A stretch of 62,207 bases of DNA, filler included, from Rhabdomonas costata (lineage: Eukaryota), in assembly GCA_019059605.1 (NCBI GenBank). It is 20 parts of 20 records of this genome, joined end to end, with 100 filler letters (N's around TTAATTAATTAA, not from the genome) between each part and the next. Parts side by side here need not be neighbours in the genome. Positions count along the whole stretch, not along the records: positions 52,981 to 55,989 come from JAHMHO010001554.1; 19 more parts are not named here. The stretch is one strand, 5' to 3'. Below are positions 10,513 through 55,482 of this stretch, piece by piece. The position numbers and the translations under genes are program-made. Below the pieces are notes generated by a model. The model did no database searches. It saw only the letters and a list, made by a program, of their open reading frames with translations, and was not told where the DNA came from. Numbering within the stretch: the stretch's first letter is position 1; the number at the start of each line of letters is the position of its first letter.

Positions 10513-11108
10513 CTGTAGTAGATGGACTCGTATGACTTGACATCTCCGCGATCCAGAGGGGTCATGAACTCCACGGCGCGGTATTTCTCCATCTTACGAA
10601 GCTCGTCGCACGCGGCGCGGGTAGGGGGGTGGGTGTGGTATGCTTGGGCAGCAATCAGAATCTGGAACTTGATCCCTGGACACCCGAAACCCAAACAACG
10701 CAGAATCAGCGATCTAAAAATACTACCCGTGAACTTGACCACAAGGCAAGCATAAACGGTGTCGTTCTCCGCCTGTGTTGGCCGAAGCTGAAAGCCGCAA
10801 CGTTGCTGATGCAAAGCAAAGGCCCCCAGCTGCCTGCCTGCCTGCCTGCCTGCCTGCAGAAGGGGGAGCGGGGGGAAGTGAGAGAATCCAAACCCGCGAT
10901 CCATTTCGCCTTGTCCTCCAGGTTCAAAAGCGCTTCAAGTGATCCAATCACCTGCGCAGAAAAGCTTCAGCTCAAGGCGCAACTCCCCACCAATCACTCA
11001 AATCACTGCCACAACCTAGGCCTCTTGCGGGGGACACCCGGTGTTCCCAACATACAAGTGAGTTGGAGACCTACATACATAGGGATAAGGAGTAGGGGGA
11101 TTTCTTTT

Positions 11109-11160
<52 letters not shown>

Positions 11161-12141
11161 TTGCAGAATGGAAGTCAGCAACACTGACAACTAGAATGTA
11201 CATGGGATTGCTCAACTGAGCAGGCAAGCATGCGGATAAGTGTGCGAAAGGGGAGGGAGAGGGAGAAAAAGGGGGCATAGGATGAGACACCTCCAGGAGG
11301 CGGTTGACCTCCTCCTGCTCCTCCTTCTCGTGGATGTACGAGGTCACGAGGTGCCGCACAAACTTCCGGTAGTGCCACACGGCCTCGTTATCGGCGTTAC
11401 GACCCTCGGCGCGGCTCTGCAGGAAGGAAGGGAGGAGGGATTTAATAGGGGGGCGATGTTTCCTCTCTGCTCCAGTGACACACTATCACAGCATAACCAG
11501 TGCTCCGATGTGTGCAATAGGTTGGTGCGAAAAAGGGGTTCGTGCCAGAGCTTGTGCGTTAAAGTCACCCGAATATTCAAGCACCCCACCCCCAGCCCTC
11601 ACTGAATCTCTCGTCTCTCGCTAGTAGTTTACTTTTTACACAACGGAGACAATGAGAAGGAGAACAGTGAAAACCACTTCCATCACAAACGGAGAAAATT
11701 GTTTTTTTGGGGAGGGGGAGGGGGGCTAAACGTTTAAGTCAGAACGCAAGAGCGAGTATCGGGTCCTACAAATCGTTTCCCCATTACAAGGTGGTGGGGA
11801 AAAAGAAGCAGCCTTTTTTTAGCCACGGTTGTCCTTCAAGCCCGCAAAATCTCTTAAAAACACACAGGCACAGCAACATACGGTGTACACAAGATACATA
11901 CATACAATATCACCAAAGTTCGTAGCGTAGTCTCCAGTTGTGGGAGCATCAGATGAGCGCGGGGGATGAAGGAAAATCAATTGCCCTTTAGCCATAACCC
12001 AATCCCACACTAAAACCCCAAGAGAGAGAGAGAGAGAGAGACCCGGCCTTCGATGATTTGGCGCAGGGTGTAGCCCAAAAGGTCCTCCAGGGAGTGCCGT
12101 ACCGCCGCCGCAAGCCGGCCCAAGAGCTTGGACTTCCCGTC
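10513..12141 (-). CDS. Multi-exon gene fragment of unknown function (exons ~12141-12043, 11416-11291, ~10771-10730, ~10620-10513)
   Basis: GC-rich open segments bounded by AG/GT: DGKSKLLGRLAAAVRHSLEDLLGYTLRQIIEGR, SRAEGRNADNEAVWHYRKFVRHLVTSYIHEKEEQEEVNRLLE, AENDTVYACLVVKFT, AACDELRKMEKYRAVEFMTPLDRGDVKSYESIYYR. Confidence 0.6.
11101..11162. repeat. (TTTC)n microsatellite; a (CCTG)n run lies nearby at ~10830-10857
   Basis: Seen directly. Confidence 0.95.
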
Positions 12142-25033: not shown

Positions 25034-27955
25034 TCATACCGAATGCCCCGGTCCGACCACGGGTGGTTCCGGAGAGCCCAGTTCCGACCCGGTCCCGTGG
25101 TGCGGGGAAGGGAGGCCCTCGGCCGCAACCTGCACGAACAGGGACTCCGGCATAAACTTCCTGTACTCTCTCAGGCTGCAGGTCAACGCGTTGAAGGCCT
25201 GGGTCAGGCTGTCCACCTCGGAAAAGATGAAGCGCGGGAAGGTTTGTACCTGCCCCAAGTCCATCGAGCACAGCAGCTCCACCTCTTGCACCATGCGGCG
25301 CAGGGGGGCGGTAAATAGCCGCACCAGGGCGACCGTCAACAGCTGAACTCTACAAGCGGCCCAGCAAACGTTAAGGTTAGGACACGACGAGCATGGTACT
25401 CACCACACAAACCAAATTTCCCAGTTTCCGCTTCCCAAGAGCCAGAGAGCCGAAGGCGAGCCGTTATAATTCCCTTGTTTCCGTCATCACCCCTTCTCAA
25501 ATAACAATGTGAGCGTGGTCACCCTACATCGGATTGACAAGACAAAGTTGGCATTTCGGAGGCGACGAAACAAGTGGGCAGGGATGGAGGTGGGCAAGGG
25601 ATGCGCCAATGACGGGGATGGGCCAAATAGCTATCTCCCCACGCTTCCACACAACTCGTTGCGGGCTCTGAGAAACCCTTGCATTGCAGCTTCAGAAACA
25701 GTGGGGAAAAAGAGACAAAAAGCCACACCCAGCCACAAGAAGCGTCCCCAGTCCAATCGCAAGAGACAATCCGTTGCCCAATGAGTTCCACATGGCAACG
25801 TTTGTGCCGACCACCACCATCCACTGCAAGTCCTGCAGTAGAAAAGCGGCAAGCGGTGGCGGGGCAAGGTGGCGTACAACGTTATACCTATATCAACATT
25901 ATGCGCTTTGAACCACAATGTGTGCTGGGAGTTGCTTTTTTCGAAAGTACGGTGAAATAGTTGGTTAAAAAAAGGGCGACGCAAGCGACGCTGTGGCACC
26001 TGTAAAAATAGCCACCAACAAGGAGGACTGACACACACGAGCAACACATAAGCCGACAATCAAGAGAACTCCGAACTCAACGAGGAAAGGAAAACAATCG
26101 CAACCACGTTGGCGAAATAAGGCACAAAACCTCAGCCAGAACCCCTCCCCCCGTCAACAAAATAGGTGCAAAAGAAGAAAAACAACACCTTATAGATAAT
26201 TGCTCGAACGTCAACGATATACCCGCCAACAGCACCAAAACTCTCTTGGCGGCCCATCTCACGAAAGGAAGCCCATTCGCCCACAGGGTCTGTCACGCCC
26301 CGAGAGATCGCCCGGATGGCCTCGCTGCTGGCCTCCACCGCCAGAACCCGCACCGCCTGCCCGCTGGGGGTGAAGGCAGAGACCATCTGCTGCCCAGCGA
26401 TGGAGCTGGCCAGGAGGTACCCCGTGTCGATCTCGACCAGGAAGGCGACGGTGCCCTCGAAGAGCGTGGCCGAGATCTGCAAGACCAACCNNNNNNNNNN
26501 NNNNNNNNNNNNNNNNNNNNNNNNNNNNNNNNNNNNNNNNNNNNNNNNNNNNNNNNNNNNNNNNNNNNNNNNNNNNNNNNNNNNNNNNNNNNNNNNNNNN
26601 NNNNNNNNNNNNNNNNNNNNNNNNNNNNNNNNNNNNNNNNNNNNNNNNNNNNNNNNNNNNNNNNNNNNNNNNNNNNNNNNNNNNNNNNGATGACAGCAGG
26701 CAAATGTAATTAAAGAAAGCAAGTTTCGCTCTACCAGCACAAAAACAGCGCATTGATGCTCTAGAGCTGGCTCACACACACACTCTCTCTGTGACTTGGC
26801 GATCACAATGACCCAGTCTGACCATTCGGACACTTTGGGGGGCGCTTTCTAAATCGAAACAACAATTTAGCTCACCTCTTTTAAGAAGTCGTCCAGGTGA
26901 TCGACTGTGCACTGGCTTCCAGCAACGGCAGTGAGCTCACCAATGGACGACCTCACAGGGGCCACCACTGGCAGGGCCAGGGAGACCGAACCGACACCCT
27001 CTGACGGCACCAGAGAGGCATACACAGGGGCGAAGGTCACGGCCTTGCTTGTCTTCGCGGCACTTTGGTACCACAACTGCAGAAAAAGAACAGCGCACCT
27101 TTCTCCCACTTGGTTCTATGAAAAACTATTGCTCGTCGTAGCCGAAAGGGAGTGTAGTGCCCAATGCTTTAATAAGCCTTCCTAAATCAATTCACCCTTG
27201 ACGGTTGCCAAGAAGTTGTGTTTCCAGGAAGTTTCAGCAGAATTTGGAGAGCTTTGGAATATACTCTCGAACTAAAACAGAGAGGGGGTTCAGGCACCCA
27301 CCCACCCACACGCACACACAAAAATGGGGGGAACGCCAATACTTTGTCCTGACAGTTAAGATCAATCAAAAAGGAAAAGGTTGTGCAAGTCTCCAGACAC
27401 CTGGAACACCCTTGGTACACAGATCTTTTAAAGAATTGAGGTTGGGGGTGGGAAGAAATGTACCCGAGCAGAGGCGTTAAACAGCTCGCTGCTCAAACTG
27501 ATCTCCCCGATCCTGCTCCGCCACAGGGCGTCGCTCCAGAGGATCACAGTGGTACACGCTTCAGAGCTGCCTTGAAGTCCGACGGTCGAGGAGACACTGC
27601 TATTATGGCAGCTGGCGGGTATAGCCCGGGTGGCTGGGAAGCTCCCAAAGCGAAAATTCGTCGTCGCATCGCTGAGGTCCCAGAACAGAGCTCCTGTGGC
27701 AACGTCCCTGTCCATGGACAAAACGTTCCCATTGGGAAGCCCGTAGTAGAGCCCCGTGAGTCCACTGCCTGCCAGCGCAGACATCGCCAGGCCCATCTGC
27801 TTGCGCAGGTCCAGGGGAGTGGGATCCGCTGCGGAAATAGAGAACGGCCGTTCCATAGCAGATGTTCTCTTGAGCAAGGAGAAACCAAGCTTTGGACTCC
27901 ATGATGGACATCTGCCAGATGTATTCAGTACCATCACCTCACTCACCAGAGCCAC
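25034..27955 (-). CDS. Cache-TM-HAMP receptor, probably a receptor adenylate/guanylate cyclase (catalytic part outside the contig). Exons ~27955-27464, 27076-26876, <=26490-26285, ~25345-25040
   Basis: LYYGLPNG, LWYQSAA..APVY..SLALPV..GELTAVAG..LDDFLK and AFLVEIDTGYLLASS (Cache-like); TM end plus HAMP TAPLRRMVQEVELL..SEVDSLTQAFNALTCSLREYRKFMPESL, the typical linker before class III cyclases. Confidence 0.72.
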
Positions 27956-33863: not shown

Positions 33864-34593
33864 ATGTCAAAAAGCAGCACGCTGGGGACACAGCTGCGGC
33901 ATGCCAATCACTTCATAAGTCGACCTTATTATATACTGGAATTCACAGATAAGGTATTTATCATAACGGCCAAAGGCAGGACATGGACGGGCCACGATAA
34001 TCCATAAGAGCCCCTTTTAATGCTGATGCGCGACGAAACCTATCATCGCATCTATCCTGTTGATATTGATGGTCCATCGCCCAAGACGCAAAATACAAAA
34101 ACCATGAAATCTCCAAGCATCCGATCAGTTCCTGGAGAGGCCTGGAAGTAGATAGCATTTCCGGCACCTGCCTCACGAGCATCGTACTTCGCCACCCCCC
34201 CACNNNNNNNNNNNNNNNNNNNNNNNNNNNNNNNNNNNNNNNNNNNNTTAATTAATTAANNNNNNNNNNNNNNNNNNNNNNNNNNNNNNNNNNNNNNNNN
34301 NNNGTGGTGTGGGGGGGGTGCCTGCCACAAGGTCAGCAAATACCCCTATGGGTAAAAAGGAAAACAGTGACCGCAAGACGGGTATCTGATAACATACGAC
34401 GCAAAGAAAAAACCAAAAATGGTCGAAAAAAACCCAGCAAGTGAATAGGATTGATGCCACTTTTGAAAATGGCCACGGAGGAGGGCTGCCGGCATGCCAA
34501 ACTGACACAGAGGGGATGGGCCAATCCGAAGCAATACGAACTGCTCAGTAAACGAAAACCTCAGTGTCATGTCTGCCTTGAACATGCACACAC

Positions 34594-34704
34594 GCAAGTC
34601 CACACCGCGCCGCAGCAGCAGCTCCACCACCCTCCGGTGGCCTTCCTGGCAGGCAGTGTACAACGGGGCACACCCGCTCGCCTTGGGCTGGTCAATGACG
34701 GCGC
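34594..34704 (-). CDS. Ankyrin-repeat exon
   Basis: AG/GT-bounded GAVIDQPKASGCAPLYTACQEGHRRVVELLLRRGVD matches the ANK consensus. Confidence 0.85.
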
Positions 34705-36081
34705 CTAAGGAACCGTTTGTGCTTGTGTGCAATGAGAAAGCTGGGTGAACACCTTCTCCCCAAAATACAACTGAATAGGCCGAACTGCAGGTTTCCTTCC
34801 AAGGCACCAGCGGGATTCCCGACCGAAGAGACTCCCACTTTCCGTCACACCTCCATACATCACGCAGTAATATGCTGCCGACAGAGTGTCCTTAACTGCG
34901 CCCGTGAGGAGGCTACACACCAGCGTTCCCTCGGGGCGCTAATGTCAATTTGCCATCCTCACACAATTACTTTGCACCACCACGTTGGACGACACGCGGG
35001 TGTGCTTCTGCTGAAAACACACAATCTCGAACACCAAGAGAAACAACGAAAGGCACAAAATTACGAGTGCACGCAACAAAAAAAAAGGAGTCTGGTGTGA
35101 TGAAACCATCCATAGAGCAGAACAGCGAGCATATCCAGTGGTCAATCATGAAAAAGGAGACAAAACCAAAACGATCCGAACACTGCGGCAAGGGGGTACT
35201 AACTCAGGCCACAGACAAGCCCCTTCAGTTGCGGTGAGCAACAACGCGAAAACACGCACAACACAAACGGGAAATACAAGTGCACAAAAGGAGTGCAATA
35301 CAAAACCCCAAGGAAATTATGAGATGCACACAGGCGTAGTGCAAACAGTTTGAGTGGAAACTGGAGAGTAACCACCACTCTAAAAAGATGAAGGAATGCA
35401 CATAAAAACTAGGAACACAGCGAACCAAAATTACATGGGGTTCCCCAGAAAAAACCAAAATAAAAAGTAAATCGGCGAACGGCAAACGGCAATGGAATGC
35501 CCCGACTCATCCAACACATACCCTCGCACAGCTAACCGCCCTCACCTCAACAGTTACAACGTCATGGACAACGGGAAAGCAAAAGTGCACGCGGGCATAT
35601 GTAGAGCACCGACAGTTTTCCAAGAAATCTGGTGCTCGAAAGAAGCGGTTTGCCACAACCGGGGGGGGGGCATACCACAAATGATTCGACATCCCTACAC
35701 AAACGGCGTCCCTTCAGCATATGACAGGAATGCAAGCCCACACAGGACTGCAAAGCAGGAAGAACAGCGGCAATTGTCCTTGCTCTTCATCCAATAGGCT
35801 TCGGCCTCCCATACGGCTCCGCCTCAGCGGAAATCATAGAAGCACAGCCACTGACCACACCAGAAAGCCAGAATACATCGACCCGCAGCCTCGCGAAAGG
35901 GCGAAAGGGTACTACCTCAATACCTCAAAAGGATAAACAGCAACGCAGCACCCAAGGACATTAAAAAATGTTTTCGTAGCCACACACGCAATCACAGAAA
36001 CAGGCGCGGATATTGTGAAGCGTGTACATCCGCACAGTGGCAGTGGTCCAAGAGAGAGTATGGCCATTCACAGGAAATACA

Positions 36082-37590: not shown

Positions 37591-40537
37591 ATTAATATAT
37601 ATTTCTGGTAATCACCAGGTTCTCTGAGCGTGAGCGTGCTTGAGAGCTTAGCGGAAGCCATGGGGAGCTTTCCAGACTCCACGAGTGAGTAGTTGCTAAT
37701 GAGGTGCGGAGGCAAGTCCATTTTCTATAACAATCCACTGAACTGCTTAGTAATAGTGTGTATGGTTTAAGTAAACTTATAATATTTGCACAAATGCCGC
37801 TGCGTACACGCAAATGTATACAGGATGTTACACCAGCGCTTATCCCACAAATAAGTCTGAGATCTCTTTCCATAATGAACACTACAAATCATTACAAAGT
37901 TCTTGCAGCCAAAGCGCGAGCCAACGAAGAAGTCAAATCAATACTTTGGCGTGACTTTGGAGTGAATGCTGCTAGTGAAGACATGTTGTTATGTGCCATG
38001 CGGTATACTGAAACTATTCCACTACTTATGCTAAAACGTGCTACATTTTAATAGCGTTAAGCAGTAAAACATTTAAATACACAAAAGAGTTATTTTTCGG
38101 CACAAATGTTGCATTATTGTGCATGTAATTAATAGGAGATGTTAAGTAAGTGTGACGTGGCAACGTTTACAACCTATTGTTGGCAAGGTTTCATCAGCAC
38201 TTTTGAAAGCACTTTTTAGAATCAGAGCAATCCTACAACGCAGAATGAGTCAGTTTTTAAACGCGGTAAATTCTTTAATATATATTGCCATCACTGCGTC
38301 TTCTCATTTTATACCTGGTAAAGATACCTTACATGATACTTCTTGTATCACGTCAAAAATAAAATAGCGTTTATTGTTAGTGAAGTTAAATTTGTAGCTC
38401 TTACGTAAGATCTACAAAAACCTCATGAAACCAGCCATTGTATACGCGTGCTCTACAATTTTCCTCGGAGCCAGTGTATCACGCATGTCCGCGCACAGCG
38501 TTCGCCTACTTATGTGCACCTTATTGTTAGCTCTTTTTTTTAGCGCAGATCATGTACTACGATGGATTGAAGTAAAATTGCAAACGCTTTTGCATAATGC
38601 ACAGGACATGATGTATAATTTAAATTGGCTATATGACATTAAAAACTGTGCAATGACGTTGACTTCGCGTTCACAAGTTAAACCACAAGTATGTATCACA
38701 TCAAAACTGTAAAAAAATATACTGTCTTGCATATTTGACTTCATGTGCTACGCAATTCGGTTATTTTGTATGACACGTTATCATATCACCAATAATGTGA
38801 GAAAACAAGAAGCACAAGCGCAAAGTGCATTTTGCACGTGATAAACGATGGAACTAAAGTACACNNNNNNNNNNNNNNNNNNNNNNNNNNNNNNNNNTGA
38901 CACGTTATCATATCACCAATAATGTGAGAAAACAAGAAGCACAAGCGCAAAGTGCATTTTGCACGTGATAAACGATGGAACTAAAGTACACTGAATGAAA
39001 GACGACAATAGAAAGAGCATAACAAACACCCATAAACTTCCCTCCACTAAATTTCTATGAACAGAGCAATATTACAAAGAAACATTTATGACTCCAAACA
39101 ATTAGAAGTTATCCAGCTGTTTTCGTACACAGTGCTGTGGACACTGTGGTGCAGATCACTCCTGTTGTTCACAAAGTTTCCTAATTTCGACGTAAATTGG
39201 ATGTAAGGGAAGTTTCGTAATTTTTTGATTTGTGCTTTGGATTTCTAATGAGGTGTGGTGTGTGTGTGTGTGTGTGTGTGACGAAATATCATTCATGTAA
39301 ATCAACGGTTTAAGTATTTATCATTTTGGTTGCTCCATTTCAAAAACATCTAACGCGGTGTTTTATTCACAAGCCAATGTCAACATCCGTGACGTATGGT
39401 ATCCTCGGCATTGGTAGCGCCCGACCAGCATCGATTGTATGCGTTTTGTATCCAGGGCAAGGTGGTGTTTTCCAAGAAGCCGAACCACGGTTTCACCCAA
39501 CAAAGCGCATATTTTAGCCCATATTGTTGGAATTGTGTGTCGAAAGTTCTGTTGGAATGACACACGGCACCAGTGGTGAAAATTAACTGTGAAAATGCCG
39601 ATCGGGATAGCCACTAAATCATGTGCCATTTACCAGCCCAGGTCCAACGTCTGCTATCTTCTGTCCGGCGGCCACGGAGCAGGATATTCAACGATATTGC
39701 GGGTAAAATTACGTGGCTTCTACTTTGGTAAGTGGTTATGACGCTGGATTCCCACGGAGGACTGTATCACAACCTTGCTTGCACAAGGTGGGCGCTGACC
39801 CCACTCACTGATGAGACTTCCACCTAGACACTTCCCTTCTTCACTTCCCGGCGGGAAGGCTCCGAACACTTGCCCTCACCACATCGGATCCATTAGGGGT
39901 GTTGAATTCCTGCCGAATCTTAAGGTCGGTTTGGAATCTCGAAATATTTTTTTTTGGGTGGTAGGATGCACGTGTGGCTCCGGGAAGCTGCCATAAACAA
40001 AGCTGGAGTCGAATTGTCGCGCCTTGGGGCTCACCATTTGTCGTTTTTGTGGGGGTTTCCCTGTGGGGGTCTCGCCACTCATGCCTTTTTACCTACTTCC
40101 ACCCAAAGAAAAGGATGTGGAAGGGGCAAAAGACTTCGCACTAACTCTGTCTTGTTTAAATTCGGTTTAAATTCCCCCCTCTCTCTCTCCCTCTGTATCA
40201 AGCTCATTCTCCCTCCCTCCCTCTATCCCTCTCTCCCTCCCTCCATCTCCCGCTCTTGCACGCTCATTCTCTCTCTCTTGTCTGTCTCTCTCGGCCACTA
40301 TACCACCCGCTCGGCTCTGGCCTGCGGCTCTTCTGTGTTCTTTCAGGCCGCCGCGTGAGCAGAAAAAGCCGAAAATAACGAATACTAGACAAACGAAGGT
40401 GCAATCACACACACCCCACCCAACCACACCCAACACNNNNNNNNNNNNNNNNNNNNNNNNNNNNNNNNNNNNNNNNNNNNTTAATTAATTAANNNNNNNN
40501 NNNNNNNNNNNNNNNNNNNNNNNNNNNNNNNNNNNNT

Positions 40538-43354
40538 GTGGTTTTTCAAGTCACCGGCCGGTCCTCTGCTCGGATCGAGCAGCTTCCCATTGTGTTTACT
40601 ACCGATGGAATGCTTGTCAAGCGAGCTCAGAGTGAACCTTTGCTTGACGCTGTGGACGTTCTGATGATTGACGAGGCTCACGAGCGAAGCCTGCAGACAG
40701 ACCTGGTGCTAGGAATCGCGCGAAAGATTGTCAGGGCTCGCTCGGACTTTAGGGTTGTGATTGCATCAGCCACCATCGATGAGCAGAAGTTTCTGGACTT
40801 TTTGGGCTGCAGCGGAGGGCCGCTTTGTGTCCCTGGGCGGACTTTCCCGATTACAGATCTTGAGCCGCCCATTTCCCAAAAGGCCGGGGTGGCGGCGGTT
40901 GTTGAAGAGGTTATCAAAGGGGTGGACGAGTTCCCAGGGCATACTCTTGTATTTCTATCTGGGCAAGCCGAAATTGAAAAAGCAGTGAGGGCTTTTCGTT
41001 CCCAAAAACCAGAACCGGAATTTGTGACCTATCCGCTGTACGCCGCACTCCCGCCCGAAGAGCAGCAAAAGATCATGGCACACTCCCCAGATGATTCTGA
41101 TGGTCGGATGGTGGTTTTCTGCACGAACATTGCGGAGACCTCGCTGACCGTGCCTGGAGTGCGGATTGTGGTGGACTTCGGGGTGGCGAAGGAGGCGAAG
41201 TTTGACCCCCGCAGGGGAATCACTGTCATTGAAGAGTTGCGAGTCTCCAGGGCATCTGCGAGTCAGCGCCGTGGGCGAGCAGGACGTACCTCCCCGGGTG
41301 TGTGCATTCGCCTTTATCTTAGTGAGGAGCTTGTTCGATCTTCCACGGTGCCCGAGATTCTGCGAAGCTCGTTGGACATTGTGGCCCTTCAGCTGCTTTG
41401 CTTGAACCACAACCCTTTGGTCTTTGACTTCATTGACAGGCCTGACGATGATGTCGTCCGTTCCTCGATGTTGCGTCTTGAGAAATTGGAATGCATCAGT
41501 GCGCCACTTCAGGTCACAAAACTGGGAAAGCTATTCTGCCAGTTACCCTTTGAGCCCTGCCTTTCCAGTTTTGTGGTGAGCTGCCATTCGGAGTATGGCC
41601 AACTGCAGGATGCCGCCGCCATTGCCTCGGTGATCAGTGCTCCGGGATCAATCTTTTTCATGGGAGGGGGAGCGGAAGACCGTTCTGCAGCGAAGCGTAA
41701 AGTTGCCGAAGATGCCGGGCAGCATTCATCAGATTTGCTCCACCAGCTCAGTGTTTTCCGAAGTTGGGAGAGGGCTGCCCATGGGAGCTGCCCTTGCAAA
41801 GGAGATAACCCACGCTGCAGCCAGTGCCGCCGCTTCCGAGCCACGTATGCAACGCAACACAGCCTGAACAACAAGGTGTTGCAGAGTGCCCTGGATACCA
41901 TGCGCACCGTGTTGGACACCGTCCAGAAAGCCCGAGTTCCTGCGGGTCCTCCTACGTCGCTTGACTTGGAGGAGGTAGTGGGTAGAGTTCTTTCTCGGTG
42001 TTTCGGAGATTCGCACGTCGCGGAAGTATTGGTTCCCAGGTTTCCGAATTTGGGCGCCCGAGCCATTGGCCGGCGGGTTTGCTTCGGCTCTCAAAGCTAC
42101 ATCTTGCAGCGCAGCAGGGCGGACCCTCCGGAGTTGGTGCTTTACTTGGAGGCTATGGAGTCTGCCAACGGCGGGTTTTTGAACAAGATTCATCCGATTC
42201 AAAAGTCCTGGATCGCGCCTGCGGAAGCTGAGAAGCTTGTTGGACCGCTTCCGCTGGTATTTCAGCAGTCGGGTTTGGGCCGGTTGTTTGAAAAGCCCAT
42301 CAGAATGGCGGTGCAGACTGTGGACAAGGAGTGGAGTGCAGTCACGTTTGATCGGGTGACGGCGACCGTCGCCGTGTACGGAACCAACCCTCAACTTGGA
42401 TCCGTTGTTGCAGCGGCGGTGGCCAAGGAGCGCAAAAACTTGGAGGAGTATGAAAGTGAGCCCATCTGGTTTGGCGGGGGCAGTGCTACCGCCACACTTT
42501 GCGCGGGCGGAAAAGTAGTTCGAGTAGAACGCGTTGGCTCCGCATTTCGTTTAGAATGTGAAGTCCAAGTTTCCAGCAAAGAGGAACTCGGCCATTGGCT
42601 GGATCAGCGCGGCATTAAAAACATTCGCTGGTCGCTGTTCACCCAATCTAAGGAAGACGCAAATGGTGGTACTGCTGTGCTGGTGTTTGCGAAAGAGTCT
42701 GCAGCAGAAGATGCGCGCAAAAAACTCGCCGCTGAAGGGATCAAAGCACGTGAGCAGCAGCGTGGAAAGGGGCTTTCTAACAGCGGCTACCGAGTCGAGA
42801 TCACCTTTCCCAGCAGGCTGTCGGAATCCGATCTGCTTGCTCGCTTTCCCGGAGCGGAATTATATGGCCACCCTTTCCCCCCAAGCTATGGGGTGCTTGT
42901 AAAGCGACTTCCACATGGTGGCTTGGCAAGGTTGCAGGCGGCGATACGACCGGCTCCGGCATCGATCAAGCTGAACGAAAAGGAAGACTTCTGTGTGATG
43001 TTTTTTGACACCAAGGAGGAAGCGGATGCCGCCGAGATGTTTCTTCGTGGGTTTCGATTTCCTTTGGTGGAACGATGCCCAGAATGTGATGGTCATGGGC
43101 GCAAGCCTTGCCAGCATCCAGGATGCCGTGGGGGAACGATTACTTGCCCCTACTGCAAAGGCGATGGGGGACGAGGGGGTCGGCCTTGCAAAGTCTGTTC
43201 CAATGCCTTGAGGGTGCCTCACACGCCCTGCCAAGGGCTCGGCTCGTTTTCCTGCAAGCGCTGCAATGGTGGCGCTGGGTTCACCATTGACGTTAAAAGA
43301 GATCCTGCGAAACACCACCCCGGCACTGCGAACCTCCGCTTCGCCACACTGCAG
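40538..43354 (+). CDS. DEAH-box RNA helicase (DEAH, HELICc, HA2) with C-terminal RRM-like folds and a DnaJ-type CxxCxGxG zinc finger; single ~2.8-kb exon, 5'-truncated
   Basis: TTDGML, IDEAHERS, SAT, VFLSGQ, TNIAETSLT, QRRGRAGR, PEILR; C-terminal CPECDGHG, CRGG, CPYCKGDG, CKVC, PCQGLG, CKRCNGG; probable donor CAG|GT at 43354. Confidence 0.92.
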
Positions 43355-43648
43355 GTGTTTAGTTTTGTATTTCTTGTGGTTTATGTGGTTTAAGCAAATC
43401 ATACGCGGAGCCCAGATAATAGGAATTGCGGTTGGAAGCTGGGAAATCGGTGAGAACTGTTATCTGCTTCAATACTGTTTCCAACAGTGGGAAAGCAGAA
43501 AAGCCCGACGGTGGGGGGTGCTTTGTTGGAAAAAAAACACTGATATAANNNNNNNNNNNNNNNNNNNNNNNNNNNNNNNNNNNNNNNNNNNNTTAATTAA
43601 TTAANNNNNNNNNNNNNNNNNNNNNNNNNNNNNNNNNNNNNNNNNNNN

Positions 43649-46660: not shown

Positions 46661-47113
46661 NNNNNNNNNNNNNNNNNNNNNNNNNNNNNNNNNNNNNNNN
46701 NNNNTTAATTAATTAANNNNNNNNNNNNNNNNNNNNNNNNNNNNNNNNNNNNNNNNNNNNTGTGTTGGGTGTCTTTGTCTTTGTTGAGCGACCTTGATTC
46801 TTGTTTGCAAGTTTAGGGCCGAAGTGGTTGGATGTGGGAAGCTTTCTTCGGTGGTGAGATGTCAGGCTCACCAGTTGTAAGCGGTCGCGTCTCCAAAGTC
46901 AAGAAATGATTAAAGGTTTGGTGACGCGCATTCGGAGCACTGGGGTGGATGGAACTGTACCAGCGAATTGGAAATACATCTACTCGATTCCAGAAGAAGT
47001 ATTTCCGTTTGTACTGTTGCCACATCTCACGCTCCAGTTTTGGCGTCTCTGTGTCTTGCATTTGTATGTGCTGCATCGTCACAAATAAAAGGAGTTGTCG
47101 CTTGCAACCCAAG

Positions 47114-49435
47114 TTGCGGAAACCGCACTCAAGGAGCGCTCCGAGGTCATGGCGTGGATGTCTCACGAGGTTTTCAACCCTGCCCCGTGCCTGTGCATCT
47201 TGCGCATCTTGTGCATCTCTTTCCCTCGATTTTCCATGTTCCCATTTGCTTTTCTCCGAACCCCATGGGAAGTTTTGTTTCTAAAACAGAATTTTGGATC
47301 GCCGATTTTGTCTTGCTCCGCACAGATTCGAACTCCGCTGAACGGGATTATTGGAATGATTGAGCTGCTGCACTCAACAGGCATGTCCTGCAGAGTTCGA
47401 TGGCAATACTTTTCTGATAGAGATCGGCTGCTTCTTGTTTCTGCCCCTTCTGTATGCTACTCTCCTTTTGCACCGTTCGCACGCTTTTCTCGCACGCCAG
47501 CGATGTCGGATGAGCAGCTTCGAGTAGTTAAGGTGATGGAGGGCGCATCCTCCAACCTGCTGGTGGTCATCAACGATATTCTGGTGGGCAGACTATCTCC
47601 CCACCCCCAATCCTCTTCCCACAAGGGGTGTTTGGGGGAGGGAAGGGGAGTGTTGTCTTCTGGCGAGCGGTGTTACGATGAATTCAAATGGAAGCGGACG
47701 ACTCATGGGGGTCGCATAAACGGTGAGATGGGTTTAGTTTAGTTTGGAGCCCAAACTCCTCCTCAAAGTGGGTTCAGTGTGTACCCCTTTGTCCTGGATA
47801 CTCGTGCCCAACGTGCAATTGCAGGAGAGGGATTTTCTTGTGCCCGTACGGATGCTTCAACCGTGTAATGTCCCACTACTGGGCAACGCCTTACTGCGAA
47901 ATCGTGGATCCCGTTTCGCTCTTGGAATAGGCTCTCCCAATTATATGGGCTTGCGCCATCATCGAGCGTGATTCTGATTTTCACTTAGGATTTTTTCAAG
48001 CTCGATGCGGGGAAGATGACCCTCGAGCTCGTTCCCACGGATTTAGCTGAGCTGGCCCGCAGTGTGATGGCGCTGTACCAGCCCAAGATGGCGGAGCGTG
48101 GGGTCAACCCTGTGGTGGTGCTTCCTCCGGAGCTTCCGCGGCTGCTGCTGTGCGACCCGACGCGGGTGCGGCAGGTGCTTTCGAACCTGGTGTCCAACAG
48201 GTGGGCTTCTCTTGGATCTTGGGAAGTAAGGGGAGCTTTCTTTTCGGTGTAAATCAGAGTTCCACTTGGGGGATGGCCGCTGTAGCGCAATTTTTTTGTC
48301 GTTGTCCTCGTTGTTTAAGAAGGATTCTCGTTTTTTTTTCTGAGCAAGTCTCTGGTGGTCTCTGTGTCGACCGGATGGATTGTACTCGACCGAGCAGCCG
48401 GGATTGTCGCATTATTCAGCGACCGACTCGAGGTGCAAAAATAGGGAAAGGACATGCTCTGCCCCCTGTTCTGTTTGCTTTTTCTGCTGTGCAGCGTGAA
48501 GTTTACGCGGCGAGGTTCCATATGTCTTGAGATCAGTCTCCGTGAGGTGCGATGTTCGCCTTGTTCGCCCCCTCCCCACTCCACCCCTTTTGGACTCACT
48601 TTTCACACTTTTCCTTCTGTTCCGATGAAATTTTGCGGCAGAGGCTAAACCTCTCTGCCCTGTTCAGACTTTGCTCCTCAATCCTTTGTTGAATGAAAAT
48701 GCCAAGGACGTCGCCGTTGACGCATGCGTCTAGAAGGTGACCATAATTCAATTTTTCTCCTTTTCTGAATGTCAAATTTTTGCCAAGGAAAAAACTTGGG
48801 CCATGGATAACATTTTTCCAAACGTCCCAAGACCAAACTTTAGTCAAGTTCAAACTGCTCCACACTTCTCAGCATTGGCTTTTTGGTAACTGCTATTGCC
48901 GTTCAGCAATGCTGTAGCGTCCCCCCCACCATGTACAAGCGCTGCCGCACGGCCCTATCAGCCGTGACCAATACGCCGAGTACATGTTCACACACACACA
49001 TTTTCAGTAAGAGTTACCGCTGAGCTCTGCCGCAGAGGGACGCCCCCAAAGGCGTCTCGTTTTGGTTTACCGTGGTTGTCTTGACAGCACTTCTATTGAC
49101 CATACGTTCCGCAAGACAGCAGGTAACTGATGGGGTTCTGCTCTTTCTTTGCCCTGAACCCCTGGCCTTTTCTATTCCCTTTTTTGAGGTGACTCAGTTG
49201 TAACAACTGTCCTTGTTTCCCGTTTCCCGAGTGTCCAAACCGAACTTCCCAGGCGCTTTGCTTTTCCCGGCCTACCTCAAAGATCGCAGAAACCTCCGTG
49301 ACCACGGTGGCCTCGGTGGAGTTCTTGGTGCGCGACACGGGCATCGGCATCCCCGCAGAAAAGCAAAGGGACTTGTTCAGCCCCTTCTCGCAGATCCACG
49401 CCTCCACAGCTCGGCTGTACGGAGGCACAGGGTTG
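47114..49435 (+). CDS. Two-component (probably hybrid) histidine kinase, HisKA + HATPase. Exons ~47114-47169, 47326-47380, 47501-47583, 47989-48200, 48496-48546, ~49282-49431
   Basis: H-box [37 protein letters not shown]-box [21 protein letters not shown]1 [10 protein letters not shown]2 LFSPFSQ..RLYGGTG. Confidence 0.93.
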
Positions 49436-50117: not shown

Positions 50118-52424
50118 GTTTACGAGTACATGCTAAGGAAGGAAGCGACCTGCCTTCGTCCCTCCGTTTTCCCAGACGGCGTGGATAGAGAATGGGTGTG
50201 GGGTTCGGGGCAACAGCTAAGGCGAGCCTCCGGGGGAAAGCTCCTGCTGGAGGGCTTGGAGTACACCGAAGAGGCCTTCCGCCACCGTGAGCAGCACCGC
50301 TTTCGTTGCCGCAGCTGTGCCACGGAGTTTTGCGCAGCGTGCGCGGCGGTGCCTTACCACTCCGCAAAGACGTGCGAGATGGTTGGAGTGGGGGTTCCCT
50401 CATCTCCTCTTTGCATATCTGGGGCAGAAAAATGTCTGCGGCTCCAAAGGAAGGCACCACAGAAGCTGCTGGTTCCACCCCTCTCGCATCGAGGTCACCC
50501 AGAGTCCATAAGTGGCTCTAATCGCTGATTTCCTCAAGTGTGTGTAATTATGTATTTTCGCACTTCTGGGATTGAAATAAATCGCTGGCTGAAATGTGTG
50601 CATCCCTTTCCCGTTATCCAAATATCTTCACCTTCATTGCCTTTCTTCTCTTCTCTCTCTCTCTCTTCTCAGTTTAGAAAGTTCCAGGAGGGGGCCTGGC
50701 ATTGCCGGTTCTGCAACGAGCCGGTGGATGAGCCCCCGGGCTCCTCCAAGAAGCGGGCATGCGTGCCCTGCCATCTTCCTGCGCGTTTCATGTTTTTGCT
50801 GTCGTCGTCACAAAGCTGCTCTAGCCTCCCTACCTGTGAACGGTGGTTTCAGCGGATTTCTCAACCGAGTTGTCTCAACCCCCACCTCCCCGCTTCAGGC
50901 AATTCGCAAGTTGGACCACCTGAGGTCAACTGGGCAGCAGTCCACCTTTTGAGTTTTGAAGGCTGTTAGCTCCGGACGATCAGACCCCTTATCAACGGCG
51001 CCGTCAAAGGCCCACTGTGTGGGCGGTGGCAACTTGCTTCTATCGCGATTGCTTTCAAGGCTCACACTTACAAGAAGAGAACGGGGGAAGAGATGGGCCC
51101 GGGCTGGAAATCACTTTCGGGTTCCTGGAGAGTCCCTAATGAACTGCTTCACATCCCCTTCTTCGAACACACCGCTGCGCTTTTCTGCGTGTGGTGTGCA
51201 TGCGTGAGTTTTGCACTTCCGACAGTCCAGCGGCTCTTCCTGGCGTCACGCCTCCTCGACTCCCATCCTTCACTTCCTTTTCACTTTCACCCCACGCCGC
51301 ACACAGAAGTCTGGGCAATGCGTTTGCGCCGCGCCGGAGTGCCAGCAGCGGAGCGAGATGGTCCGTGCATCTCACGTGCCTCTCCCTGCTTTCTGTGCTT
51401 GTAGTTTTTTTGTCATCCTGCGGCCTTCTATGCCGCGGCCCCAAGCTAGCTCTGCTGCGCTTTGTGCTGTTTCGTGTTTGCTGTGGAAAATTTGCATGGA
51501 GACGAGATTTTGAATTTGTGTTGCTGCATCGTCGACCACTTTTTTGTTGTGCACCCTTCGCCAACATCCAGGATTTCACTGCTCCTTTCACTGCTCCTGA
51601 TGCATTTGGCTCACCATTCTTTCCCTTCCGTTGTCTTCGGTGACTGCGGGCTGGTCTGACCAGCGATGTAGTGCTGCTGTGATGCTTTTTGGATAAATGG
51701 GGGGAGGGGGCGTTGGGTGCGTGCAGGCCTGCCCTAAGACCCTGCGGTGCGGGCACCTATGCGGAGGTGCCCATGGGGAGAAGAAGTGCCTGCCCTGCCT
51801 ACACGAGGACTGCAAGCGCCACCTCAGCTCATCTCTGAAGCAGGTTGGGGTGGTGAGGAGGACTGAATGAGGCAGAGGATTTTTTTCTCAGTTCTCTGGC
51901 AACTTGATTATTCTCGATCGGCCATGAAAGTCTCAGCCAAAGATCATAATAGATAAAGGAACAACACTCATAATACAGTACCGAGGCTGAGCGCGAACCT
52001 GGTGAACGGGAATCGCTAGACCAGGAGTCGCTTTCTCCTTACGGGTCCGCCAAGCATTCCGAAACCTCTAATACTCTGAAAAGTCTTGATTTGCAGACAA
52101 GTATCTTCGCCTCCTGTACAGCTGCAGCGAGCGTTTGGTCACTCTAAGTGCAATCCCAGTGCAATGGTTGAAACTGTGATCGACACCCCAATTCGCTCTG
52201 ACCTGAGAAAAAGCCTAAACGAAAGCGAAGGTTACTGTGTCAGCTCTACCCCCTCCCCCTCCTGGGCAGCATGCGGCAACACCATTTCCACATACAGGGT
52301 GGCTCCGACTACTGCGCAATCTGTTACGTGGAGGCCCTCTCCAGTGCGCCCTGTGTGCAGCTGACCTGTGGGCATGTTTTTCACTACCACTGCATCGAGA
52401 AGAAGCTGGCCAACCGGTGGCCCG
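50118..52424 (+). CDS. MYCBP2/Highwire/RPM-1-like C-terminal RING module protein, partial. Exons ~50118-50381, 50673-~50757, 51307-51360, 51727-51843, 52298-52424
   Basis: FRCRSCATEFCAAC..PYH..KTCE; HCRFC; VCAAPECQ; ACPKTLRCGHLCGGAHGEKKCLPCL; DYCAICYVEALSSAPCVQLTCGHVFHYHC..LANRWP. Confidence 0.85.
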
Positions 52425-53439
52425 GTCTGCCGCACATTGCATGCCGCACTCTCAAATCTCTCGACAGAAACCGGACAGAAACCGGCACTCTTCAGCACCC
52501 CCACTCCCCTACCTCACAGAGAACAAGATAGATGGAGAGAAAAATCGCTCATACGAACCGATTGAGGAAAGCCCTTGGCTCCTGACAAACTTTCTCCAGC
52601 ACTTAGGCGATAATGCTCTTCGGCGGATTGACATACAGACACTCATCTGGACCCATCTGGACCCCATGCATGCAAAAAAATCGTTGTGAACAATGCTTCT
52701 GCACTAGTCTGCTGTGATACAGCGTGGCAACTGGTGGCGCCCTGCTGACGCAGGTCTATGGGTCACGAAGGAAGCATCAACCTTCGTGAAACTTCGTGAG
52801 CGCCCAGTCATTTGGTCATGCCGTGCTGGAGTGGAGGGAGCAGGCTGGGTATGGTAGGAATGTCATATGCACCAACCCACNNNNNNNNNNNNNNNNNNNN
52901 NNNNNNNNNNNNNNNNNNNNNNNNTTAATTAATTAANNNNNNNNNNNNNNNNNNNNNNNNNNNNNNNNNNNNNNNNNNNNAGATCAAATGACCTCCGTTC
53001 ATGTCAAGAGGTGCACCAAGGGATTTTCGAGGGTGAGCTTTCTTCGAGACAGGCGTATCCTCTGGGAGGTTTTGGCTCGGCCGAATGACTACACCCGTTG
53101 AAAAAGAAGAGATCTGACTGTTGTTATTTTGCTGCTGTCCGACGACTGCACGATGCTGATTGTATGTTCCCAGGTTCTGGGGGATTTACAGAAGATTGGT
53201 ATGAGAGTTTGCTAGGTTGGCATAGACGCCTCGTGAGAAAATAGAAACACCGCACTGTGGCGTTGCTGCGCGAAGTGACACATGGGCATATTCCATATCA
53301 CGGATTCCAGCTGATATGGGTGGTTCGTACAGTTGACATCATGCCGGCTCTGGAATGATGGCGTGGTTCAGCTGTGCCTATTTAAGGGCAGGCACAATTA
53401 CCTATAATCGCTACCTTTCGACAGACAATGGTGGATCCG

Positions 53440-53512: not shown

Positions 53513-55482
53513 ATGCTCAGACTGTGTTGGGCAGCAGGTTTGCTCTGCGGAAAGGGACAGCTCCTCAGGCCTGCGTTGACTGGAATATTGTCTCGAAGTT
53601 GTTCCCGTGCCGAGGAGTATCGCCCCATGCGTTTCTATTCGCAGTCACTGGGCAGAAACAGGTCTGATGACGAGCAGCTCTCTTGGGAGCTTCACTGCCT
53701 TTTGCAAAGCCCTTCAGACAATCAAACCGCTGAGGATCGAGCCCGGGAGCTAATCTAGTAGAGACTTTGAGCTCTCGATCTCAGCAGGTCAGTGAACTGA
53801 CCGTGCTAAGGTGTGTGAGCGCTTTGTCCAAGTCATCGGAGCACCTTTCCAACCGAAAGCTGTGGGATGCGCTGGTGAAGGCAATTGTGTACCATGTGAA
53901 TAAAGGGCCGGGGTCATCCGAAATCCTATCCAGCAGTCGTTTTATCTCAACCTGTGTCAACAGCTTCTCTAAGGTAGGGAACCTCCCTGACAGTGCTGAC
54001 ACAGACGCTCTGTGGGAATCGCTCTCATCCGCCGCGATTGCTGCTTCGCCACGGATGAGCGCAAGAGAACTAGCAAGCTGTGTGAACGGATTTTCCAAGA
54101 TTCAAATGCTTTTTGACAACCAACGCCTCTGGATAGCCTTGGCGAAAGCTGTGTTGGCAGTGAACTCCCCGTTGGGGTCTCAGGACGTGGCGAATTTTGT
54201 GAATGGGTTCTCCAAAATTGAAGGTCTTTATGGTAGTCGCAAGCTATGGATGGCCATGTCAAAAGCATCTGTTGGTGTGATGTCACAAATGACGCCACAT
54301 CACGTGGCGACCTGCGTGAATGGATTATCCAAGATTAGCATCCTTTTCGGCGACCAGACACTATGGGACTTACTCGCCAAGACAGCCGTCTCTTTGGTGA
54401 ACCAGATGAGCTCGCAAAACGTTACAATCTGCGTGAATGGGTTCTCAAAAATTGAGCTCCTTTTTGACCATGGTGTTTGGGTAGCGCTGGCCAGAAGGAT
54501 GGTGATGGTCAGCCAGTGGACATGGAAACCTCAGCATGTGGCCAACTGCGTGAATGGCTTCTCGAAAGTCAAGACTGTTCTTACATCTCCGAGCCTCTGG
54601 GAAACTCTCGGAAAGGCAGCTGTCTCGTTGCGAAAGCAGATGAACTCGCAAGACGTTGCAAATTGCACAAATGGCTTCTCCAAGGTACCGGCACTGATCG
54701 GTAATCACAATCTGTGGAAAGCTTTGTGTAGGGCCGCCCTTTTAAACATGGAAGAAATGAGCGTGCAGCATGTCGCCAATTGCGTTAACGGTTTTTCAAA
54801 GGTTCAGCTCCTACTTGGGGAGGAACATTTATGGAAATCCTTGAGTACTGCGGCTGTATTTCTTGGGAACGAGATGAGTGCACAGCACGTTTCCAATTTC
54901 GTGAATGGGTTTTCCAAAACTAGGATTCTTACAGACAGAGAGCCGTTGTGGAAAACCCTGGCTCGGAGCACTGTCCTTCTCTCCAAGCAGATGACCTCTC
55001 AAGGCGCTGCAAACTGTGTAAACGGTTTTTCGAAGATCGAGCTCCTTCGTGATGACCGCAAGCTGTGGGGAACGCTTGAGCAATTGGTGATATCTCAGGT
55101 GGAGCGGATGAATGCACAGGAACTGGCGAATTGTGTCAGCGGTATTTCCAAGATCCCATACCTGTGTGAAAAGCGCGAGTTGTGGCAAGTTTTAAGGAAT
55201 GCGGCCCTCCCCTCCAGTCTCGAAAAAGCTATGAACATAACTCCTGTGCACGTGGCGGGGTTCGTCGACGGATTTTCCAAGGCTGATGGACTTGCGAGCG
55301 ATCAAATCCTGTGGAGGGCCTTGAGAGAGGCAGCCGTTGCTGTACAGAAGGAAATGAGCCCCGAGTGTGCGGCCGTCTGCATCAGTGGTTTTGCCAAGGT
55401 CGAGTTTCTGCTCAACCACCACGCTTTTTGGGGAGCGCTACGGAATGCTGCCAGTGGCAAGATGTCTTTTGAAGGAGCCTGA
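53513..55482 (+). CDS. 39-aa helical-repeat protein (OPR/HPR/SKWP-like) with a putative mitochondrial targeting leader; one frameshift at ~53752
   Basis: 13 clear and 1 degenerate repeats, consensus MxxQ[HDE]VANCVNGFSK[IV]xxLxxxxxLWxxLxxA; the upstream frame MLRLCWAAGLLCGKGQLLRPALTGILSRSCSR.. joins if one base is added in CTAATCTA. Confidence 0.8.

Follow-up and report, generated by a model that had tools for sequence, protein, structure and literature searches.

Architecture of the repeat array

The stretch analyzed here (hereafter, the window) comprises 62,207 nucleotides (nt) of the Rhabdomonas costata genome (assembly GCA_019059605.1; 20 parts from 20 records, joined end to end). Our subject is a gene at positions 53513..55482, in the part derived from JAHMHO010001554.1, that encodes a protein of tandem two-helix repeats and is preceded by a short leader open reading frame (ORF). 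Its features are as follows.

53513..53758 (+): leader ORF of 81 codons plus TAG, out of frame with the repeat body (ATG at 53513, stop at 53756-53758)
53662..53741 (+): candidate 80-nt GT..AG intron, spotted by eye, an alternative to the frame change
53741..53748 (+): probable 1-nt deficit joining the leader to the repeat body (CCCGGG run at 53742-53747)
53734..55482 (+): repeat body, encoding protein P0001, a single stop-to-stop frame of 582 codons plus stop
53779..54045 (+): two degenerate N-terminal units with spacings of 47 and 42 residues, both kept in the homolog P0003
54046..55461 (+): twelve canonical 39-residue units (one of 43), two helices each, in a 117-nt register

Repeat units were anchored on the pentapeptide [NSD]-G/S/A-[FLI]-[SA]-K, which ends the first helix (helix A). 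P0001 contains 14 such units, spaced in order by 47, 42, 39 (nine times), 43, and 39 residues; 10 of the 13 spacings are exactly 39 residues and none is 37, and the spacings given by a hidden Markov model (HMM) of the unit were concordant. The consensus of helix A is Q-x-V-A-N-C-V-N-G-F-S-K, with NGFSK exact in 8 of 14 units, and the second helix (helix B) opens with L-W (LW in 12 units, Trp in all 14). Across the twelve canonical units, Gly15 and Lys18 are invariant, and Ser17, Leu22, and Trp29 are each kept in 11. Helix A varies most at position 8 (H, D, E, N, G, or C) and position 11 (mostly N, otherwise S, T, I, G, or V). These results bear out an earlier note on this DNA, which had described 13-14 tandem units, mostly of exactly 39 residues, with near-invariant NGFSK and LW; its two variable columns, numbered 5 and 8 there, match positions 8 and 11 letter for letter.

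At the DNA level, copies 117 nt apart share only 60–79% identity, NGFSK codons differ synonymously, and Tandem Repeats Finder reported no DNA tandem array. The repeat is therefore old and has been kept at the protein level, and is neither a product of chance nor of recent duplication.

Relatives of the protein and of its repeat unit

A scan of 1.84 billion representative proteins with P0001 returned 209 proteins at E <= 1e-3, 57 at E <= 1e-10, and 6 at E <= 1e-30. Among PDB sequences, the sole phmmer match of P0001 was RESC6 of Trypanosoma brucei (E 2.2e-9). With a profile built from P0001 and 19 relatives, the PDB matches included RESC6 (2e-54), mitoribosomal mL115 of Chlamydomonas as the second-best match (3e-20), and RESC8 (1.4e-18), followed by Polytomella mL123, RAP-domain mitoribosomal proteins of Toxoplasma gondii, mL162/mL157, Tetrahymena mL101, and human FASTKD4; the Polytomella ATP-synthase subunits ASA3 (E 4.5e-9) and ASA2 (E 1.1e-6) were also matched. 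When 68 relatives (300-1300 residues each, taken in rank order up to 50,000 residues) were compared with Pfam at E <= 0.01, FAST_1 was found in 49, DUF1601 in 27, RAP in 24, and DUF6832 in 15. The close homologs P0003-P0007 carry a precomputed annotation of PF26188, and P0003 and P0004 also of PF26172. The names of these Pfam 38 families, RESC6 (PF26188) and RESC8 (PF26172), were taken from Atlas neighbours (scores 0.92-0.94) of low recognition value, which otherwise gave a lead only.

The Pfam search of P0001 itself gave no row above cutoff; the weak rows Phage_glycop_gL, FlaF, and Phage_rep_O lay below it and were treated as noise. In agreement with the earlier note, Pfam placed neither a RAP (PD-(D/E)XK-like) nor an enzyme domain in P0001, and a tblastn search of the window with 152 relatives revealed no RAP-like piece elsewhere and no further piece of the family other than a single orphan repeat unit (see below).

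The AlphaFold2 model of P0001, computed with a 20-row alignment (mean predicted local distance difference test [pLDDT] score 79.7, predicted template modeling score [pTM] 0.75), is wholly helical with two helices per unit. Helix A spans positions 6-16 of the unit, with S-K at its cap and a one-turn loop helix, and helix B is 17 residues long and runs into the next unit. A Foldseek search of the PDB ranked RESC6 first (E 2.6e-9), then RESC8 and chains of the Toxoplasma, Polytomella, and Chlamydomonas mitoribosomes, with designed PPR proteins weaker. Structural superposition with VIA-align gave the same leading match, as follows.

RESC6: Z 25.4 (445 of 453 residues, root-mean-square deviation 5.3)
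7pkt_Q: Z 21.3
8a22_Xd: Z 20.1
9i05_Xj: Z 19.9
RESC8: Z 18.9
ATP-synthase ASA3/ASA2: Z 16.6-16.9
Generic armadillo/HEAT/importin rows: Z 11-14

The model is thus superposable on the OPR/HPR/RESC6 fold at scores clearly above those of generic helical repeats. Sequence and structure both agree with the earlier suggestion of an alpha-solenoid whose nearest relatives are organellar RNA-binding repeat proteins, namely RESC6 and the mitoribosomal OPR, HPR, and RAP proteins, and we consider it very probable that P0001 belongs to the superfamily formed by OPR, HPR, the FASTK N-terminal domain (FASTK-NTD), and RESC6.

To place the repeat unit, a 39-residue profile of 13 distinct units from P0001, P0003, and P0005 was aligned by hhalign with units of other types, which were cut from stored proteins only between anchor pairs at modal spacing and counted as distinct units.

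37-residue Asn-type (32 units): 98.5%, E 1.7e-15, 35 columns, one 2-residue gap in the inter-helix loop
42-residue SKWP-type (17 units): 97.4%, helix A only, 25 columns
39-residue Trp-type (12 units): 95.1%
38-residue Trp-type (28 units): 94.6%
37-residue Trp-type (93 units): 93.3%

Because the whole unit aligns at 98.5% with a single loop gap, the 39-residue unit is probably of the HPR/FAST_1 type with a loop that is two residues longer; in this comparison, 37-residue units taken from relatives stand in for the published HPR motif. The OPR-type Trp is kept as well. The lineage-specific repeat class proposed in the earlier note is therefore not upheld, and P0001 is a small subfamily within a known superfamily, rather than a new repeat class. 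What is new lies at the subfamily level: a 39-residue period, the combination of N-G-F-S-K and L-W, the lack of RAP, high regularity, and very few relatives. A 2025 review describes 39-residue repeats as 'apparently missing' (PMC12691811); since this statement conflicts with the definition of OPRs as repeats of 38-40 residues (PMC8635915), a clean 39-residue array is a curiosity and not a new class.

The close subfamily was found in only four clusters, all from ENA assemblies. Pattern-based scans with the alignment of the close homologs, a procedure that leaves room for distant relatives, gave 77 pattern matches in prokaryote genomes (one per species, 185,579 species) and 179 in JGI metagenome contigs, none of which was confirmed. 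A literature search for NGFSK or a 39-residue repeat returned unrelated papers only, and orthologs may already be listed in the supplements of HPR/OPR surveys.

The N-terminus, the surroundings, and the question of origin

The leader is basic and rich in Leu, Ser, and Arg, with basic residues at positions 3, 14, 19, 28, and 32 and the first acidic residue not before position 34, a composition that looks like that of a presequence. The leader ORF and the repeat frame overlap over 53734-53758 in different frames, and the first ATG of the repeat frame does not occur before residue 107 of its translation. Hence, the earlier description of an intronless gene with a leader does not hold as written, because the ORF from 53513 stops at 53756-53758 out of frame with the repeats, and the two can be joined only through a short intron or by correcting 1 nt.

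The homolog P0003 aligns with the repeat body at 38% identity over 386 columns, starting from window position 53749 (P0003 A149). Since P0003 shares the two degenerate units at the start of the body, the coding sequence must enter from upstream. A BLASTP comparison of the leader with P0003 gave nothing significant, and the local alignment score of the leader against the first 150 residues of P0003 was reached by 108 of 1000 shuffles; this alignment was used for register only. It ends at leader R76 (53738-53740), which corresponds to P0003 R145 and lies in register with the downstream alignment. The four residues from P0003 R145 to A149 are matched by only 11 nt of the window (53738 to 53749), and one base is therefore probably lacking between 53741 and 53748. 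We infer that the leader ORF encodes the genuine N-terminus and connects to the body across a 1-nt deficit of the assembly (sequencing error or polymorphism). Removal of the 80-nt candidate intron would also restore the frame, and its length (2 mod 3) is what the frame change requires; this join is ranked second, since it removes a stretch collinear with P0003, and is less likely.

Beyond the gene itself, the window contains the following features.

52982-53098 (+): orphan single repeat unit, 39 codons then stop (tblastn E 1e-4 with P0001, 9e-5 with P0003)
52271-52528 (+): RING finger piece, profile positions 2-34 of 44, cut at the ORF end
47089-47739 (+): HisKA piece, profile positions 12-29 of 66, cut at the ORF end
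40538-43393 (+): helicase frame of 951 codons after an N stretch, intronless, with DEAD/Helicase_C and a Cys-rich C-terminal part
34346-34888 (-): ankyrin repeat piece, cut at the ORF end

Some 400 nt separate the orphan unit from the leader downstream of it. An N stretch immediately before the unit hides how far it extends upstream; the unit may be left over from a tandem paralog, or it may be the terminal exon of another gene, such as the RING-finger gene. The position of the unit suggests paralog decay at the locus, and together with the overlapping, mismatched frames of leader and body and the late first ATG of the body, it could indicate that the gene is a recently inactivated pseudogene, with a real frameshift and no protein made. 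However, all 582 codons of the body are open, the conservation with P0003 extends to both degenerate units, and the repeat motif has been kept through synonymous change. In addition, the deficit falls at the CCCGGG run, a usual site of base-calling errors, and the GT-AG intron offers a second way of restoring the frame. We regard recent inactivation as improbable and retain the leader joined to an intact repeat body.

The earlier remark that most genes here are intron-rich found indirect rather than direct support: the RING finger and HisKA domains break off where their ORFs end, and among all frames in the 62 kb just two, of 966 and 582 codons, are longer than 303 codons. The guanine-cytosine (GC) content at the repeat locus is 0.49-0.50, equal to that of the flanks. 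Domain pieces cut at ORF ends, few long frames, and GC equal to the flanks all fit an intron-rich eukaryotic genome.

Other observations concern the window at large. The best relatives of the helicase frame (951 residues) are only 36% identical and include the bdelloid rotifers Adineta and Rotaria. A tetranucleotide microsatellite at about 11000-11220 (+) encodes an SFFL or ERKK run, depending on the strand, inside long spurious frames. Runs of N form pairs that recur with strict periodicity, at intervals of ~3115 nt; each pair consists of two 44-N runs with 12 bases between them (e.g., 52881-52924 and 52937-52980), and one pair adjoins the orphan unit. Two odd runs lie at 26491-26688 and 38865-38897. 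The N runs look like masked stretches and not assembly gaps.

The likeness to bacterial SKWP/XopAD effectors described in the earlier note is real and strong. The NCBIfam XopAD/skwp model NF041399 matched P0001 with E 4.9e-53 over model positions 368-723 of 2133, i.e., the repeat region only. From rank three onward, the library scan yielded very large proteins from bacteria. Their period is 42 residues, and their near-identical helix A ends in exact N-G-F-S-K, with W-P thereafter. By cluster, they include XopAD/skwp-family type III effectors of Mesorhizobium (including mlr6331) and Rhizobium etli, 'shikimate kinase'-annotated proteins of Bradyrhizobium and Sinorhizobium, and a DUF1601 protein of Bradyrhizobium. 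Giant Mycobacterium proteins annotated as WXG100-like (P0011 and P0043; M. simiae and others), also among them, carry long arrays of 42-residue units with helix A ending in N-G/A-F/L-S-K, and the repeat type is therefore also present in putative type VII secretion substrates. The likeness between OPRs and the repeats of SKWP effectors has already been published (PMC7729196).

The strength of this match, the rhizobial XopAD/skwp-family relatives (e.g., P0010, E 1.2e-44), the common NGFSK pentapeptide, and the intronless repeat body might be read as signs of a gene taken from bacteria, or of bacterial contamination of the assembly. In contrast, SKWP units align with the 39-residue unit by helix A only, whereas the 37-residue eukaryote-type units align by the whole unit. 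P0001 has neither the W-P nor the 42-residue period, it lacks RdRP-like, pyrophosphokinase, and shikimate-kinase modules, and against NF041399 it reaches only 179.9 bits, where the cutoff is 2000. The prokaryote scan described above revealed no close-subfamily relative, the GC content equals that of the flanks, and the neighbors in the window are split, eukaryote-type domain pieces. Taken together, a bacterial source appears highly improbable. The earlier suggestion of a retroposed or horizontally acquired gene gained no supporting evidence either, in that the searches made turned up no spliced-leader relic and, in species-representative genomes, no prokaryotic protein related to the close subfamily; the search for a dinoflagellate spliced-leader relic gave 0 matches, which says little either way. 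We therefore continue with a eukaryotic member of the OPR/HPR/FASTK-NTD/RESC6 superfamily.

Possible function and comparison with known systems

On balance, the locus is probably a nuclear gene that encodes a stand-alone OPR/HPR/FASTK-NTD/RESC6 alpha-solenoid with a likely role as an organellar RNA binder, and for the RNA-binding role taken by itself the relatives incline us, with some reserve, to the same view. In such a scheme, the presequence-like N-terminus would direct import into an organelle (mitochondrion or plastid), where single-stranded organellar RNA would be bound along the inner groove, as in solved OPR proteins. A positive ladder would arise from the invariant Lys that closes each helix A, and target choice would depend in part on positions 8 and 11 on the exposed face of that helix. 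The protein may then protect or position an RNA end, or be a structural part of an organellar ribonucleoprotein or mitoribosome. Judging from helical periodicity, V9, A10, V13, and F16 would form the buried face of helix A, and positions 8, 11, 14, 15, and 18 the exposed face, such that one surface would carry the conserved Asn14 and Lys18 as well as the two variable positions, 8 and 11.

Relatives provide precedents for RNA binding. The OPR proteins mL115-117 hold the single-stranded 3' ends of rRNA fragments in an inner groove rich in Lys and Arg (PMC8660880), and RESC6 and RESC8, which double as scaffolds, use their concave surfaces to contact RNA (PMC12687428). In Toxoplasma, two small mitochondrial RNAs owe their stability to an HPR protein (bioRxiv 10.64898/2026.01.22.701003), and the mitoribosome contains five HPR proteins along with RAP proteins, for which the Results and Discussion of the paper give differing counts, four or five (PMC11652630). 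The intact 582-codon frame, with synonymous differences within the invariant motif, also supports a functional protein of this kind.

Several points weigh against this interpretation. FAST_1 (PF06743, gathering cutoff 27.4 bits) gave no match to P0001 at E <= 1, and DUF1601 (PF07671, the SKWP-type repeat) reached 12.8 bits (E 0.11), short of its cutoff of 25. The leader is out of frame, and the gene could therefore be broken; its likeness to P0003 is not significant by itself. The model has low confidence at residues 399-437 and 540-582, and the placement of positions 8 and 11 in the groove comes solely from helical periodicity and not from the model. Furthermore, 7 of the 12 canonical units have Asn at position 11, and variability is greater at several positions of the loop and of helix B. 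Finally, members of this fold also serve as RNA-free protein scaffolds, as the presence of Polytomella ASA2 and ASA3 among the matches and the scaffold role of RESC6 illustrate.

The last point leads to a different function for the same fold and family, i.e., a protein-protein scaffold in an organellar complex rather than a sequence-reading RNA binder. The ATP-synthase subunits ASA3 and ASA2 match by profile and by superposition, RESC6 is reported to employ its two surfaces in a scaffold role (PMC12687428), and P0001 has no RAP or other RNA-processing domain. Nonetheless, most of the top relatives by structure and sequence contact RNA in mitoribosomes or in the RNA editing complex, and the Lys and Asn on what would be the exposed side of each helix A are consistent with a polyanion-binding surface that recurs from unit to unit. 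A pure scaffold is a possible but rather unlikely function, and organellar RNA binding remains the interpretation that we prefer.

A further idea of the earlier note, that each repeat may read about one nucleotide, is doubtful in the strict form of a one-nucleotide-per-repeat code. It is, if anything, a little less likely that P0001 represents the most regular natural OPR/HPR member yet, with 12 near-identical units that vary in helix A at the exposed positions 8 and 11 alone and read RNA at one nucleotide per unit. Our literature search found no amino-acid code for OPR or HPR repeats, including in the available portions of PMC8635915 and PMC12691811, and a code is hard to derive because natural OPR/HPR members are degenerate. 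Being highly regular and variable at few surface positions, a 39-residue array of this kind would serve conveniently as a model for binding-site selection and repeat engineering. If it were true, reading of one nucleotide per unit would be the first decipherable code of the OPR/HPR/SKWP type, including the XopAD/RipS arrays that share helix A. Otherwise, P0001 adds a further lineage-restricted protein to a family whose expansion in protists and algae is already known.

Compared to known systems, P0001 resembles the HPR proteins and the N-terminal repeats of FASTK proteins (FAST_1) in its two-helix unit, with helix A of the form Q-x-x-A-N ... N/W-A/G-F-A/S-K and a hydrophobic start of helix B. 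As in these mostly organellar families, some members of which have no RAP domain, PPPEW is absent (PMC6212722). HPRs were defined as 37-residue repeats that lack PPPEW (Hillebrand et al. 2018, PMC6212722), and P0001 departs from that length, with a period of 39; its helix B also opens with L-W where theirs has L-F, and its array is unusually regular.

The 39-residue period, with two helices per unit in the model, falls within the 38-40 residues of paired-helix OPRs (including the green-algal mitoribosomal proteins mL115-118 and mS107), and Trp at the start of helix B is a common feature. PPPEW, the motif of the majority of OPR units, occurs in 0 of 14 units here, with the W alone kept in all 14; the accepted OPR protein CCS2 is likewise without PPPEW (PMC8635915). 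Unlike OPR-type units, which have W-A-x-A-x-L in helix A, P0001 has N-G-F-S-K. With RESC6 and RESC8 of the T. brucei RNA editing substrate-binding complex, the resemblance is one of fold and profile, RESC6 being both the best single-sequence PDB match and the best fold match. However, RESC6 is only 15–17% identical to P0001, is listed as RAP domain-containing, and acts in a kinetoplastid-specific complex.

Finally, the SKWP/XopAD/RipS proteins of Ralstonia, Xanthomonas, and rhizobia share with P0001 the near-identical helix A and exact N-G-F-S-K. They differ in the 42-residue S-K-W-P repeat and in helix B; in P0001, the residue after S-K is I, V, T, A, or S and W-P follows in 0 of 14 units, and the absence of both PPPEW and the SKWP-type WP agrees with the earlier note. 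They are also bacterial, secreted proteins of 2000-3000 residues with enzyme modules, none of which lies downstream of the repeats in P0001. The SKWP array has been predicted to form an RNA-binding solenoid similar to PPR and RAP proteins (PMC13667924), and P0001 provides a clean eukaryotic counterpart to helix A of these effector repeats.

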